Position numbers and translations under genes: made by a program
Notes under the pieces: model-generated
Databases searched by the model: none
Told to the model about the DNA's origin: nothing
What the model saw: only the letters and a program-made list of their open reading frames with translations
Source of the DNA: Rickettsiales bacterium
GTDB lineage: Bacteria > Pseudomonadota > Alphaproteobacteria > Rickettsiales > CANDYO01
Direction of reading: 5' to 3'
Length of the DNA stretch: 64,000 bases
Assembly (NCBI GenBank): GCA_049653745.1
Contig: JBASGW010000031.1
Location: 38,048 to 102,047, forward strand
In this document: piece by piece, positions 23,737 through 27,508 of the stretch
Layout: every line of letters begins with the position of its first letter
Position numbering within the stretch: position 1 is the first letter of the stretch

Positions 23737-24342
23737 ATGATTGATAACCTTAAATTATTAGAATTAATGAGTGCTAGAATGTTTCATGACTTGGCTGGAC
23801 CAGTTGGCGCTGTTAATAATAGCTTAGATTTTCTAGAAGAAGAATCCTCTTCTCTAAGAGAGAAGGCTCTACAAATTATAAAATCTAGTAGTGATGAATC
23901 CATTTTAAGGCTTAAGTTTTTTCGAAAAGCTTATGGCTCTATAAACGATAAAATGCTGGATTTACAAAGCTTAAAGTCAACAATCAACGAATTTTTAGAA
24001 AAAACTAAAATAAAAATAACTTGGCTTGAGACTGATATTCTTGAGATTGATAGCTCTATAGCAAAAATAATTATGAATTTTACTATTATAGCTGCAGCTT
24101 CTATAATTTATGGCGGTTTCTTAGAAATTTCTTGTTCTAACAGAGAATTAAAAATTAAGTTTATTGCCTCCAACTTAATCTTATCAGACGAGACTATGTG
24201 TATTTTGAAAGGTGAATTAGAGAACATAACTCTTTCTTCTTCAAACATTCAAATATACTTCACTCATCTGCTTATAAAAGACATAAATTATAAAATAAAA
24301 ATAGATAAAAATACTAGCGAAACTATATTTACATTTAAATAA
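23737..24342 (+). CDS. chpT: Histidine phosphotransferase, ChpT-like
   Basis: The N-terminal LLELMSARMFHDLAGPVGAVNNSLDFLEEE...FFRKAYGS aligns with Caulobacter ChpT (LAARLCHDFISPASAIVSGLDLLED...FTRVAFGA), including the phospho-accepting His. The ~200-aa length also fits. Confidence 0.75.
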   Translation: MIDNLKLLELMSARMFHDLAGPVGAVNNSLDFLEEESSSLREKALQIIKSSSDESILRLKFFRKAYGSINDKMLDLQSLKSTINEFLEKTKIKITWLETDILEIDSSIAKIIMNFTIIAAASIIYGGFLEISCSNRELKIKFIASNLILSDETMCILKGELENITLSSSNIQIYFTHLLIKDINYKIKIDKNTSETIFTFK

Positions 24343-24362
24343 AAAATATTAATGAGCATAAA

Positions 24363-27032
24363 ATGGATGAATTAGTAGCAGATTTTATATCGGAAACAAC
24401 AGAAAGTTTACTTAATTTAGACAATGAATTAGTTGAATTGGAAGCCAATCCAGACAATGTTGATTTATTAAGTAAAATTTTTAGAGTGATGCATACTATA
24501 AAAGGCACTTGTGGTTTTATTGGATTAAGTAAATTAGCTTCAGTGGCCCATGCTGCAGAAAATATATTAGATAAACTCCGTAGCAAAAAAATTACTGTAA
24601 CCTCAGAAAAAATATCAATCTTACTAGAGGCTATAGATAATATTAAAAGTATAGTAGAACATATTCAAGGAACTGGCGAAGAACCTCAAACCGATTATTC
24701 TGAACTAATTGCAAGAATTAATGCTACTATATCTACCGAAGAAATCTCCGTAATAAATTCACCCACTGCCTCAGTATCTATTTCAGAAACAGACAAAAAG
24801 CCCAGCGTGGAACTATCATTAGCTGAGTTAGATAAATTATTTGAACATAAAGATCAGCTGCCTGCGGAAGCTCCAGTGGTAGAAAATAAAATAGAACCTA
24901 CAAAAGAGCAAACTCCTTCAGCTCCTGAGCCCATTCAAACTATAGAAACAAAAAAAATTTCTACTCCTTCTAAAGCAACTAGCGAAGAACATGGAGATGA
25001 TGGCAGTAATCAAGCGATTAGAGTAAAAGTTGAAGTGCTCGATAGCTTAATGCAGGCTGTAAGCGAGCTAGTATTAAATCGTAACCAATTACTCCAATTA
25101 GATCGCGTTATTCATGATGACCGCCTAACTTCTTCTTTGCAAAGCTTAAACTCTTTAACTTCTTCAATTCAAGAAATAGTGATGAGCACCAGAATGCAGC
25201 CTATAAGCAATGCTTGGCTAAAAGTTCCTAGAATTATTCGAGATATTTCAAAAGAACTTAATAAGAAAATAAATCTAATAATGATTGGGAAAGAGACCGA
25301 ATTAGATAAACAGTTAATTGAATCAATAAAAGATCCTTTAGTTCATATGATTCGTAATTCTGCAGATCATGGCTTAGAAAAAGAGGAAGTTCGTTTAGCT
25401 GCAGGCAAACCAGCAGAAGGGACAATCACTCTTCAAGCATATCATTCTAGTGGTCATATTATTATAGAAGTTTCAGATGATGGAGCAGGTATTAATCTAG
25501 ATAGAGTAAAAAGCAAAATACTAGAAAATGGCTTATCTACCGAAGCTGAAATAAACCAACTTAGTGAACAACAAATTATTCAATATATTTTTAAGGCAGG
25601 ATTTTCTACAGCCACAAAAGTTACGGCTCTTTCTGGAAGAGGCGTTGGAATGGACGTAGTAAAAAATAATATTGAAAGCATCCATGGAAGCGTTGAAATT
25701 AAAAGTGTTACTGGCAAGGGGTCTACTTTTATTCTTAAAATTCCTCTAACTTTAGCCATAATGCCTATTTTAATAGTAGATGTAAAAAATCAAAAATTTG
25801 GAATTCCTCAAAATAGTATCTTAGAAATGCTTAGAGTGGGCCCAGATTCTTCTTATGATATAGAAGAAATGAATGAGCATTTTATTTTACGTCTTAGAGA
25901 TAGCTTAATACCTTTGGTTAAACTTTCTGATGTTTTAGAATTAACAGAGGATCAAATCAAAAAAAATAATTCTCTTGAAAAAGATTATTATATAGTGATT
26001 TGTGAAGTGAGAGGTAAAAGTTTTGGATTGATTGTTGATAATATCTACGACACAGAGGAAATTGTTTTAAAACCTTTGCCAAAATTATTAAATTACTTGA
26101 ATGTTTTTTCTGGAAATACATTATTAGGCAGTGGGGAAGTGGTAATTATTCTTGCTCCAGCTGGAATTGCACAAAAAACTTGCCTACTTGATAAAGAGTC
26201 TAGCTCTATAATTAAACCTAAAATTCAAGAAACGAATATAACTTCTAGTTTTCTTGTAGTTAAATATGAAGGAGTTCAGAAAGCTATCCCTCTAGAGTTA
26301 GTTTCTAGGTTAGAAGAAATTGATATTTCAAAAATAGAAAATATAGGCAATAAAAAAGTTATTCAATATATGAATTCTATTATGTATTTAGAAACTCTAA
26401 ACCCCAATTATATTATACCAGAAAAAGGAAAACTTCCTGTGGTTGTTTTTGTAAATAATGAACATATTCTTGGTTTAATTGTGGAAAAAATAATTGATAT
26501 AGTTAATCAAAATATAGAAGAAAATTTATCATTTGATCAAAGTAATCTAACTGCTTTAGTAATAGATAATAAAACCATGGACATTGTTAATGTAGGAGAC
26601 TTTTTTCAAAAAATATCTGTTGTACATTTTGAAAATATAGAAAAATCTCCTAATTTTAAGTATAAAATTTTACTTGCAGAAGATAATCCTTATTTTAGAA
26701 AATTTATAGCTCACTCCTTAAAAGCAGAAGGCTTTGATGTTTCCACAGCTAAAAACAGTATAGAAGTATTGAATTTAATAGAAAATAAAAAAGATAACTT
26801 TCACTTACTAATAACAGACATAGATTTAAAAGAAACTAATGGTTTAGAATTAGCTAAGCTCTGTAAACAGCATCCAAAATCTTCTAATCTTATTATTATT
26901 GGCTTAACATCTAATAATGAAAATTCAAAATTAGAATTTACAAAAGATGACAATAAATTTTTTAGCGACATTGTCTCTAAAGTAAACTCTAATGAATTGA
27001 TAGAGCTTATTCATTCTGTTTTAAATTCTTAA
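24363..27032 (+). CDS. cheA: Hybrid chemotaxis histidine kinase CheA (HPt, dimerisation, HATPase, two CheW-like domains, C-terminal receiver)
   Basis: HPt motif FRVMHTIKGTCGF (His44, nt 24492-24494). HATPase motifs HMIRNSADHGLE, DDGAGIN and GRGVGMDVV. The first CheW-like domain follows LTLAIMPILIV and a second lies at about nt 26245-26620. The receiver begins KILLAEDNP..LLITDIDL (nt 26664-27029). Confidence 0.9.
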   Translation: MDELVADFISETTESLLNLDNELVELEANPDNVDLLSKIFRVMHTIKGTCGFIGLSKLASVAHAAENILDKLRSKKITVTSEKISILLEAIDNIKSIVEHIQGTGEEPQTDYSELIARINATISTEEISVINSPTASVSISETDKKPSVELSLAELDKLFEHKDQLPAEAPVVENKIEPTKEQTPSAPEPIQTIETKKISTPSKATSEEHGDDGSNQAIRVKVEVLDSLMQAVSELVLNRNQLLQLDRVIHDDRLTSSLQSLNSLTSSIQEIVMSTRMQPISNAWLKVPRIIRDISKELNKKINLIMIGKETELDKQLIESIKDPLVHMIRNSADHGLEKEEVRLAAGKPAEGTITLQAYHSSGHIIIEVSDDGAGINLDRVKSKILENGLSTEAEINQLSEQQIIQYIFKAGFSTATKVTALSGRGVGMDVVKNNIESIHGSVEIKSVTGKGSTFILKIPLTLAIMPILIVDVKNQKFGIPQNSILEMLRVGPDSSYDIEEMNEHFILRLRDSLIPLVKLSDVLELTEDQIKKNNSLEKDYYIVICEVRGKSFGLIVDNIYDTEEIVLKPLPKLLNYLNVFSGNTLLGSGEVVIILAPAGIAQKTCLLDKESSSIIKPKIQETNITSSFLVVKYEGVQKAIPLELVSRLEEIDISKIENIGNKKVIQYMNSIMYLETLNPNYIIPEKGKLPVVVFVNNEHILGLIVEKIIDIVNQNIEENLSFDQSNLTALVIDNKTMDIVNVGDFFQKISVVHFENIEKSPNFKYKILLAEDNPYFRKFIAHSLKAEGFDVSTAKNSIEVLNLIENKKDNFHLLITDIDLKETNGLELAKLCKQHPKSSNLIIIGLTSNNENSKLEFTKDDNKFFSDIVSKVNSNELIELIHSVLNS

Positions 27033-27046
27033 AAAGAGGTTAGTTA

Positions 27047-27508
27047 ATGGCAAATAGCGATAAGTTTCAAAAATTGACTAAATTTGTTTCTGTCAAACTT
27101 GGTTCTCAGTATTTTGGAATACCTGTAGAACATGTAGTGGATATTTTATCACCACAAAAAACCTATCCTATTCCTTTAGCTAAAAAAGAAATATTAGGCT
27201 CTATAAATTTAAGAGGAAGGATAGTTACAGCTTTAGATCTAAAATATTTATTAGGTATAAAAATAATTTCTCAAAATTTAAAAACTCAAAAATGTATGGT
27301 TTTAGAGTTAAATGGAGAATTATTTAGCTTTGTGGTAGATGAAATTGGATCAGTAATCAATTTTACTTTAGAAGCTTTAATTAAAACTCCTGATACCTTA
27401 AGTCCTTTATGGCAAGAGATTTCCCTAGGTATCTTTCCTATTGAAGAAGAATTAGCTATACTTTTAGATATTAACAAAACTATTGAATCTTTAAAAAACA
27501 GTTCTTAA
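27047..27508 (+). CDS. cheW: Chemotaxis coupling protein CheW
   Basis: 153-aa single CheW-like domain (FGIPVEHVVDIL, INLRGRIVTALDL, FSFVVDEIGSV), 14 nt downstream of cheA. Confidence 0.85.
   Translation: MANSDKFQKLTKFVSVKLGSQYFGIPVEHVVDILSPQKTYPIPLAKKEILGSINLRGRIVTALDLKYLLGIKIISQNLKTQKCMVLELNGELFSFVVDEIGSVINFTLEALIKTPDTLSPLWQEISLGIFPIEEELAILLDINKTIESLKNSS

Follow-up and report, generated by a model that had tools for sequence, protein, structure and literature searches.

We analysed a 64,000-nucleotide stretch of DNA from a genome labelled Rickettsiales (contig JBASGW010000031.1, positions 38,048 to 102,047; hereafter the window) and focused on three neighbouring genes on its forward strand, chpT, cheA and cheW. 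We found that the 201-amino-acid product of the first gene is a ChpT-family histidine phosphotransferase, and that the adjacency of chpT and cheA is real, ancient and widespread, far beyond chance. The explanation we lean towards is that this protein serves the CtrA relay as its canonical ChpT and that its gene is co-transcribed with a cheA-cheW pair of chemosensory class F5 from a probably CtrA-controlled promoter, in what would be the reduced remnant of a chpT-che-ctrA supercluster. The alternative that we weigh most closely is a direct exchange of phosphate between the receiver domain of CheA and ChpT.

The family assignment of the first protein is supported by sequence models, by alignment to solved structures and by its predicted fold. 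Residues 77-192 matched the Pfam family PF10090 (HPTransfase) at 57.9 bits (cut-off 22.9), and PF10090 was present in 54 of 54 close homologs. Two NCBIfam models of ChpT, NF046018 (Brucella/Rhizobium) and NF046025 (Caulobacter), aligned with the protein from end to end (E = 2e-29 and 6e-27) despite scores of 102.6 and 94.5 bits, which lie under their equivalog cut-offs of 240 and 225; outgroup proteins encoded at the same genomic position scored 117-133 bits against the NCBIfam ChpT models. Since these models are clade-specific, a score below the cut-off indicates a sequence that is not of the Brucella or Caulobacter type, rather than one that is not ChpT. A sequence profile built from the ChpTs of the window's clade also reached Bartonella ChpT. 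A wide protein search with an outgroup alignment as query returned about 8000 family members, and the best 120 of these were almost all metagenome proteins.

When compared with the PDB, the peptide ARMFHDLAGPVGAVNNSLDFLEE aligned with the phospho-histidine helix of Brucella ChpT (4QPJ; E = 8e-17, residues 5-199) and likewise with that of Caulobacter ChpT (4FMT; E = 8e-8), which bears out the alignment with the Caulobacter phospho-histidine that the original prediction, made from the letters of this DNA alone, had proposed. The same search matched a further entry, 4FPP. The CHD histidine of 4QPJ and 4FMT corresponds to His17, which we predict to be the phospho-acceptor. This residue, within RMFHDLAGPVGA, was invariant in 22 clade members and in a 13-sequence wide alignment. 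Ala25, eight residues after the histidine, was also invariant in both the clade and the wide ChpT alignments; in the canonical relay, the Ala at this position of ChpT contacts helix 1 of the receiver (PMC9981736).

An AlphaFold2 model of the protein reached a predicted local distance difference test score of 90.9 and a predicted template-modelling (TM) score of 0.86. In a Foldseek search with this model, the best seven matches were all ChpT chains (TM 0.85-0.88, root-mean-square deviation 2.3-3.0 Å), whereas true histidine kinases scored no higher than 0.61. The protein is only 20-26% identical to the solved ChpTs. The model predicts the build expected of the family, a DHp-like helical hairpin followed by a degenerate kinase-like alpha/beta domain, and neither of the ATP-lid motifs D.G.G and G.G.G was found in the kinase-like domain.

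The domains of CheA, in the order P1/Hpt, P3, P4, P5/CheW, a second CheW-like domain and a C-terminal receiver, are listed in Table 1 together with its predicted phosphorylation sites. The N, G1, F and G2 boxes of P4 are intact (HMIRNSADHG, DDGAG, FKAGFS and GRGVG). No Pfam match to a P2 domain was found in CheA, which has a low-complexity linker instead, and P2 profiles are known to be insensitive (PMC10542144). A duplicated CheW domain marks class F5, being present in 99% of F5 CheAs; the studied examples come from Azospirillum, Rhodospirillum centenum, Caulobacter and Azorhizobium, and a receiver has been noted for the Azospirillum and Azorhizobium proteins (PMC10542144). The window CheA has the domain layout of this class, an assignment made from architecture and gene order only. 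Across the receivers of 35 CheAs encoded next to chpT, the equivalents of CheY D13 and D57 were kept in all 35, K109 in 34 and T/S87 in 32. The third gene encodes a plain single-domain CheW. All three identities given in the original prediction (ChpT family, CheA with a receiver, CheW) thus held when set against Pfam, NCBIfam, PDB and fold matches.

The three genes are separated by spacers of 20 nt (chpT-cheA) and 14 nt (cheA-cheW), the latter with a strong AAGAGG ribosome-binding site before cheW, and a 157-nt spacer lies between cheW and the shikimate kinase gene that follows. A consensus scan found no terminator-like site within the unit, and the operon-like spacing read earlier from the sequence stands. 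Promoter-like sites in that scan were at background level only, so that it taught us nothing beyond the terminator-free unit. We infer that chpT, cheA and cheW form one co-transcribed unit with chpT first. An antisense open reading frame (ORF) of 83 amino acids, which overlaps the 3' end of chpT and the start of cheA, was without support and was rejected as spurious. The window has a G+C content of about 30% and holds housekeeping genes along with genes of a host-association type: three for TcdA/TcdB-like glycosyltransferases and others for proteins with ankyrin or Sel1 repeats. The genomes closest to it are metagenome-assembled and carry the label Rickettsiales. Neither cheY, cheB, cheR or ctrA, nor cckA, cpdR or any other receiver or kinase gene was found in the 64 kb.

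The arrangement is conserved among close relatives. In the same clade, where ChpT is 42-58% identical, chpT, cheA and cheW lay on one strand in 10 of 10 further loci, five of them from GTDB species and five additional (individual loci are referred to as L001 and so on). The spacers between the three genes were 12-31 nt in L001-L005. Six of the ten clade loci have cheB-cheR after cheW, and cheY is present in the clusters of L005 and L098 only; the clusters of L002, L003, L095, L096 and the window end at cheW. A gene for 5-formyltetrahydrofolate cyclo-ligase, which in the window is the divergent neighbour of chpT and serves as a synteny marker outside the signalling unit, is also found upstream of chpT in L001-L003, L005, L095, L096 and L099. 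After cheW, L002 (11870-12961), L003 (11581-12702) and L095 (13875-14966) each have a gene for a periplasmic solute-binding protein. One clade member departs from the pattern in its CheA. In L096 (10001-12858), chpT ends 1 nt before a cheA that encodes only 609 amino acids, with a vestigial second CheW-like domain and no receiver; cheW overlaps the end of cheA, and about 1.5 kb after cheW has no ORF.

More distant ChpTs (27-35% identical), from loci with 35-55% G+C and different flanks, were all encoded in the order chpT-cheA(REC)-cheW-cheY-cheB-cheR, where REC denotes the receiver. A metagenome scan added 80 loci. Among 68 independent loci with readable sequence after chpT, cheA followed directly on the same strand in 43 (ChpT 27-64% identical, with unrelated flanks), lay 3.4-3.8 kb beyond chpT in four (L083, L086, L089 and L090) and was replaced by a convergent ctrA directly next to chpT in 10, while the remaining 11 had other content or too little sequence to tell; as the sample was not de-replicated and is biased to ChpTs with the motif [CF]HDLxGP[IV]GA, these are counts and not frequencies for the whole ChpT family. 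Of the four wider gaps only that of L090 (10219-13025) was annotated, and it contains binding-protein and permease genes. Loci with the adjacency spanned 30-68% GC, and in many outgroups the chpT-cheA spacer was 100-260 nt. The adjacency seen in the window is thus conserved in related genomes and is not specific to one strain.

We found that ctrA recurs at these loci as well. In L010, the gene after chpT-cheA-cheW-cheY-cheB-cheR is an NCBIfam CtrA equivalog (408 bits, cut-off 350), and the order of chpT, che cluster and then a convergent ctrA beyond cheR was seen in about nine loci (for example L010, L015, L022 and L025). Thirteen loci combined cheA directly after chpT with ctrA somewhere in the fetched sequence; in two of them (L002 and L003) ctrA is upstream, and in two others (L028 and L080) only che remnants are left. 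In L002, L003 and L095, ctrA lies two genes upstream of chpT, just beyond the cyclo-ligase gene. The corresponding position in the window, where those three loci have ctrA and tilS-like genes, is occupied by a TcdA/TcdB-like glycosyltransferase gene.

Decayed or partial che genes stand between chpT and a convergent ctrA in L028, L046 and L080 (Table 1), and these are snapshots of the loss of a che cassette. In a ChpT tree, the state in which chpT sits beside ctrA with no che genes appeared at least three times, on separate branches that lie within groups still carrying che. The positions of ctrA, the remnants and the tree are most simply explained by an old chpT-che-ctrA supercluster that has lost its che cassette repeatedly. 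The comparison of gene orders makes the window locus most likely a reduced and rearranged remnant of it.

A similar arrangement can be traced in model organisms. Bidirectional best hits of Caulobacter cell-cycle genes in Bradyrhizobium japonicum USDA110 include chpT (gi 27377302) and ctrA (gi 27377311) (Brilli et al. 2010). The former is Blr2191, a DUF2328 protein with the KEGG assignment chpT according to a proteomics paper, and a 2026 chemotaxis paper gives blr2192 as cheA2, which encodes 949 amino acids with a C-terminal CheY-like domain. From the Blr2191/blr2192 numbering across these papers, a recognised chpT ortholog directly precedes cheA2 in this strain. In the tabulated genomes, chpT and ctrA carry GI numbers that lie 9 apart in B. 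japonicum, 6 apart in Rhodopseudomonas palustris CGA009 and BisB5 as well as both Nitrobacter, 5 apart in Rhodospirillum rubrum, and 1-2 apart in Brucella, Bartonella, Xanthobacter, Parvibaculum and Rhizobium (Brilli et al. 2010, Table S2). These differences are arithmetic on identifiers and not a direct reading of genomes, and they fit a pattern in which some lineages have a five-gene che cassette separating chpT from ctrA while others lack it; for named model species, the adjacency comes from cross-referencing the three papers together with these differences. In the classical Rickettsiales, chpT was listed in none of 15 genomes, ctrA in all 15 and cckA in nine Anaplasmataceae (Brilli et al. 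2010, Table S2). In the genomes examined here, which are Rickettsiales by the label given to them, ChpT is clearly present and in every case accompanied by che genes. The original prediction had viewed the gene product as a ChpT-like protein that passes phosphate to an unknown response regulator. With ctrA linked to it in relatives and Blr2191 preceding cheA2, it appears instead to be canonical ChpT.

Upstream of chpT we found a conserved element, TTAGCTTTTTGTTAACATTAA (TTAG-N7-TTAAC), which starts 69 nt before the ATG and matches the CtrA consensus TTAA-N7-TTAAC at all but one position. Of the 10 clade loci that were aligned, 9 share the block TTAGC(T)TTTT(G/A)TTAA(C/T)ATTAA at 60-80 nt ahead of the start codon, within upstream spacers that are AT-rich and could not otherwise be aligned. 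Six outgroup loci (L011/L081, L012, L013, L023 and L078) have an exact TTAA-N7-TTAA within about 100 nt upstream of chpT. Higher-GC relatives (L010, L015, L020, L022, L025, L031, L032, L037, L049 and L069) have a block of their own, TT(A/T)AC-N7-TTTAG(A), about 60-110 nt upstream of chpT, which is related but not identical. A relaxed motif occurred upstream of chpT in 15 of 77 loci, compared with about 1.2 expected from its locus-wide frequency, an enrichment that is overstated because the background is mostly coding sequence. No CtrA box was found in 47 chpT-cheA spacers. Scores for CtrA sites are also high for the chpT promoters of Sinorhizobium, Rhizobium and roseobacters (Brilli et al. 2010, Table S4a). 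A strict search of the window for TTAA-N7-TTAA gave 13 matches where 18 were expected, none of them in the chpT promoter region; the conserved element, with its one mismatch, came to light only when relatives were compared. We conclude that the conserved element is probably a CtrA-dependent promoter for chpT and the genes downstream, with CtrA binding predicted from its likeness to the consensus.

The window protein is likely the canonical ChpT, given that in relatives ctrA adjoins the chpT/che cluster, or chpT itself where che genes are missing, and that the Bradyrhizobium best-hit ortholog precedes cheA2. This genome presumably carries cckA and ctrA, and a single ChpT. CheA, coupled by CheW to chemoreceptors encoded elsewhere, would autophosphorylate on His44 and pass phosphate to receiver domains, including its own Asp819, in the usual chemotaxis function of F5 systems, and His17 of ChpT would serve the relay from CckA to CtrA. 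The ChpT and che modules would then be tied mainly through expression, with the CtrA-box-like element putting both chpT and the che genes under CtrA. The relay, which turns on genes for motility and chemotaxis, would in this way feed back positively on itself, and its production would be coupled to that of the chemosensory kinase. Direct exchange of phosphate between the CheA receiver and ChpT could well occur in addition to the expression link. The receiver-less CheA of L096, which is kept beside chpT, makes the explanation through canonical ChpT independent of the CheA receiver.

Several observations weigh against it. The window lacks ctrA, cckA and cpdR, so that the canonical partners are assumed for the organism, and a second, more canonical ChpT may be encoded elsewhere in the genome. 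The protein scored well below the NCBIfam equivalog cut-offs, which belong to models built for Brucella/Rhizobium and Caulobacter. The upstream element has G where the CtrA consensus has A and could be the site of another factor or a mere promoter, and TTAG-N7-TTAA is not enriched in the window alone. In addition, co-expression alone is a weak reason for a gene order that is kept across protein identities of 27%-95%, and an adjacency of tens of nucleotides in the same orientation usually marks physical partners among signalling genes.

This last point leads to a second explanation, which is possible although we hold it to be less probable: a branched phosphorelay in which CheA~P phosphorylates its own receiver at Asp819, the receiver exchanges phosphate with ChpT His17, and ChpT passes it to CtrA (and to CpdR, if present), so that CtrA~P would be tuned by chemoreceptor input in parallel with CckA. 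This is the relay of the original prediction, with CtrA now put forward as its regulator. In lineages whose cluster lost cheY, this branch would be the main output. The adjacency of chpT and cheA on one strand, amid unrelated flanks, would be expected of such partners. A receiver was present on 35 of 36 full-length CheAs linked to chpT, with the phospho-acceptor residues in 35 of 35, and its helix 1 has a family-specific and strongly constrained motif, (E/D)DSPFFRxL. Most clusters in the window's clade lack cheY. In Sphingomonas melonis, a second hybrid kinase, CcsA, reportedly feeds ChpT through its receiver. None of the 15 classical Rickettsiales is known to have chemotaxis genes. The absence of chpT from all 15 (Brilli et al. 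2010, Table S2) fits a retention of ChpT that tracks the retention of che genes in this order. ChpT is also a promiscuous partner of several receivers (PMC9981736), and the role of the F5 CheA receiver is unsettled, with reports that R. centenum needs it for chemotaxis and that it is no simple phosphate sink in Azorhizobium caulinodans (PMC10542144).

The residues expected at the interface point the other way. Three residues after the acidic pair, at the contact position of helix 1, the CheA receivers have Phe or Tyr (E-D-N-P-Y in the window, D-S-P-F in most others). The same position is Ala in CckA-Rec and CtrA and Ser in CpdR, and the small residue allows a close approach to the Ala of ChpT (PMC9981736). 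The CtrAs encoded at the same loci as these CheAs have Ser or Ala there, and the contact positions of ChpT were invariant in the sample. The CheA receiver also lacks the strand-4 FATGUY motif of CckA-Rec and CpdR (it has no FxSGY), and its helix 1 is closer to the corresponding helix of CheY and CheB, both partners of the Hpt domain. A receiver with neither the small helix-1 residue nor the FATGUY motif makes the phosphotransfer model less likely. We found no support for a docking surface for ChpT shared by the CheA receiver and CtrA, the specificity residues compared with CtrA, CheY and CheB speaking, if anything, against one. Against the PDB the CheA receiver had generic receiver matches only, with no preference for CckA, CtrA or CpdR, and its NCBIfam matches to CpdR and CckA were dismissed as generic receiver similarity.

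Gene content points in the same direction. The L096 locus, where the gene for a receiver-less CheA begins 1 nt after chpT, speaks against an obligatory phosphotransfer, and chpT stays with ctrA after che loss, so that the primary linkage is between chpT and ctrA. The wide chpT-cheA spacers of many outgroups likewise count against it, and a literature search found no biochemical or genetic report of transfer between ChpT and CheA. Taken together, we consider it a tentative proposal that the receivers of F5 CheAs exchange phosphate with ChpT and that chemoreceptor arrays feed or drain the CtrA relay across many Alphaproteobacteria. If this were true, the main or only chemosensory output in the reduced chpT-cheA-cheW lineages would be a chemoreceptor-driven transcriptional and cell-cycle switch and not motor control.

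It is improbable, in our estimate, that the protein is a dedicated chemotaxis accessory, that is, a ChpT paralogue acting as a shuttle, sink or phosphatase between the CheA receiver and CheY/CheB, unrelated to CtrA, with a separate canonical ChpT elsewhere or with ChpT dispensable. That its gene heads a che operon whose members are closely spaced in the clade, that it scores under the NCBIfam ChpT equivalog cut-offs and that the window lacks ctrA would all fit. However, the same family abuts ctrA where che genes are absent and flanks the cluster opposite ctrA where they are present, and the genome scan found one locus per genome, with clade-specific patterns only. In Bradyrhizobium, the gene found at this position pairs with Caulobacter chpT as its bidirectional best hit, with no other listed, and the receiver-docking Ala at His+8 is as invariant as in the canonical relay. 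Least likely of all is a historical accident, in which a che cluster was inserted between chpT and ctrA and the order was kept by inertia with no functional or regulatory coupling: the che cluster does behave as a removable cassette between the two, and four loci (L090 being the annotated one) tolerate an unrelated transporter gene pair between chpT and cheA with neither lost, but the adjacency is kept in small, rearranged Rickettsiales-type genomes in which ctrA and all other neighbours have moved, the orientation is constant and the spacers tight, and a conserved promoter-region element precedes chpT while the chpT-cheA spacers have no CtrA boxes.

CtrA is a master regulator of motility, of development and, in some orders, of the cell cycle in the Alphaproteobacteria, and its environmental input outside Caulobacter is largely open. 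In many lineages chpT heads an F5 chemotaxis cluster that ends at ctrA, which yields a concrete hypothesis, cheaply testable in model organisms such as Bradyrhizobium diazoefficiens (blr2191/blr2192) and R. palustris. Either ChpT and the chemosensory kinase communicate, or chemotaxis and the CtrA relay form one self-reinforcing expression unit. The presence of a clear ChpT in Rickettsiales-labelled genomes, when the classical survey had none, bears on the route from CckA to CtrA in that group. Taken alone, the conservative explanation through co-expression amounts to a useful comparative annotation with no new mechanism. The linkage had been thought uncharacterised, and in one respect this stands, as a full-text search found no paper on a link between ChpT and CheA. 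The arrangement itself, being old and widespread, is not new to sequence databases and is present, though uncommented, in model genomes.

The window and its relatives contain several other features that may be of use in placing the locus (Table 1). The spacer beside hemE holds the only two perfect DnaA boxes (TTATCCACA) in the 64 kb, at 30831 and 31041, together with two boxes that have one mismatch, and cumulative GC skew is lowest at 30-31 kb; the genes gidA-gidB-parA-parB are found elsewhere in the window. This spacer is a probable chromosomal replication origin, which would put the chpT operon only about 3-7 kb away from it. In L097, hemE and chpT are likewise within a few kb of each other. 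TrcR, of the alphaproteobacterial "transcriptional cell cycle regulator" family, is the single further regulator of a cell-cycle type that we saw in the window. The three glycosyltransferases with DXD motifs, of the TcdA/TcdB / Gly_transf_sug type, are candidate host-directed effectors, and the set of Sel1-repeat, ankyrin-repeat and ShlB/FhaC-type proteins is typical of intracellular or host-associated bacteria. In L098 (1-8014), head-tail genes resembling a gene-transfer agent (GTA; capsid/protease, connector, tail and GTA_TIM) form a cluster upstream of chpT that stops about 2 kb short of it, with a glycosyl hydrolase gene separating the two. GTA clusters are regulated by CtrA in Rhodobacterales.

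Table 1. Positions of features in the window and of che remnants in three related loci
Sequence	Feature	Positions	Strand	Basis or remark
Window	Conserved CtrA-box-like element, TTAG-N7-TTAAC	23668-23688	+	Starts 69 nt before the chpT ATG
Window	chpT	23737-24342	+	ORF of 201 aa (amino acids)
Window	ChpT His17 codon, predicted phospho-acceptor	23785-23787	+	Motif RMFHDLAGP; alignment with the CHD histidine of 4QPJ and 4FMT
Window	cheA	24363-27032	+	ORF of 889 aa
Window	CheA P1/Hpt	24369-24647	+	Pfam Hpt, residues 3-95
Window	CheA His44 codon, predicted P1 autophosphorylation site	24492-24494	+	HTIKG, inside the Pfam Hpt match
Window	CheA P3	25011-25187	+	Pfam H-kinase_dim
Window	CheA P4	25332-25751	+	Pfam HATPase_c
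Window	CheA P5/CheW	25767-26177	+	Pfam CheW
Window	CheA second CheW-like domain	26244-26657	+	Residues 606-765 against the P5 profile, hhalign 94.1%, E = 1.3e-7
Window	CheA receiver	26667-27017	+	Pfam Response_reg, residues 769-861
Window	CheA Asp819 codon, predicted receiver phospho-acceptor	26817-26819	+	LITDIDL; receiver alignment
Window	cheW	27047-27508	+	153 aa; PF01584, 88.6 bits, E = 3.6e-25, residues 13-148
Window	Antisense ORF of 83 aa (spurious)	24335-24586	-	Overlaps the chpT 3' end and the cheA start
Window	5-formyltetrahydrofolate cyclo-ligase gene	23069-23650	-	PF01812; divergent neighbour of chpT
Window	DXD glycosyltransferase gene	21714-23033	-	At the ctrA position of L002, L003 and L095
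Window	DXD glycosyltransferase gene	57825-59078	-	
Window	DXD glycosyltransferase gene	59093-60406	-	
Window	Sel1-repeat protein gene	8490-9269	-	
Window	gidA-gidB-parA-parB	12115-16207		
Window	hemE	29705-30745		
Window	Probable replication origin (spacer beside hemE)	30746-31059		
Window	ShlB/FhaC-type two-partner-secretion transporter gene	46531-48237	+	
Window	ORF of 428 aa	48241-49527	+	No Pfam match; follows the ShlB/FhaC-type gene
Window	Ankyrin-repeat protein gene	49520-50401	+	
Window	TrcR gene	60454-61026	-	PF06242, 197 bits
L028	cheA fragment	9726-12597		Remnant between chpT and ctrA
L046	cheY and partial cheR	9704-11862		Remnant between chpT and ctrA
L080	cheA stub, 36% identical	8594-9520		Remnant between chpT and ctrA

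Compared with known systems, the possible phosphorelay from CheA to ChpT has a counterpart of similar logic in Che3 of R. centenum, where a chemosensory module controls cyst formation through the kinase CheS3 and CheY3 (PMC4436063). Both would join a chemotaxis-like input to a developmental two-component output, and both are alphaproteobacterial. Che3 differs in belonging to an ACF-type cluster, in using a true kinase instead of a phosphotransferase, in its output and in being experimentally established. The default explanation of the CheA receiver, one that needs no ChpT, is a role as phosphate sink or modulator (PMC10542144). The CheA-fused receivers considered in this role (Helicobacter pylori CheAY2, Pseudomonas aeruginosa ChpA and A. 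caulinodans CheA) resemble that of the window in being intact and C-terminal on a P2-less kinase. Unlike them, receivers of the window type have a conserved DSPFFRxL in helix 1 and K-T/S-D/N instead of K-P after strand 5. We know of no ChpT-family gene in the operons of those three systems. The CcsA/CckA-ChpT-CtrA pathway that is said to operate in S. melonis offers a precedent for a second hybrid kinase, although CcsA is of the DHp type and not a CheA, and we know of no CheA that has been shown to feed ChpT.

The locus also resembles canonical ChpT systems and F5 clusters. The window protein shares the family and fold of the ChpT of the CtrA relay, its phospho-histidine helix aligns and the receiver-contacting Ala at His+8 is kept. 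In Brucella, chpT and ctrA are neighbours, a linkage that also occurs in the window's relatives, whereas chpT of the window heads a che operon and its product has diverged from the solved ChpTs to the low identity given above. F5 clusters of the order cheA(CheW-CheW-REC)-cheW-cheY-cheB-cheR are represented by Che1 of Azospirillum brasilense, Che1 of R. centenum, the A. caulinodans cluster and che2 of Bradyrhizobium diazoefficiens (blr2192 onward), and no mention of ChpT was found in the searchable published work on these systems. They have the same P2-less CheA architecture as the window, with a duplicated CheW domain and a C-terminal receiver, and the same gene order as its relatives; they keep cheY, cheB and cheR, whereas the window keeps only cheA and cheW. 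In Bradyrhizobium, chpT stands before cheA2, just as it stands before cheA in the window.

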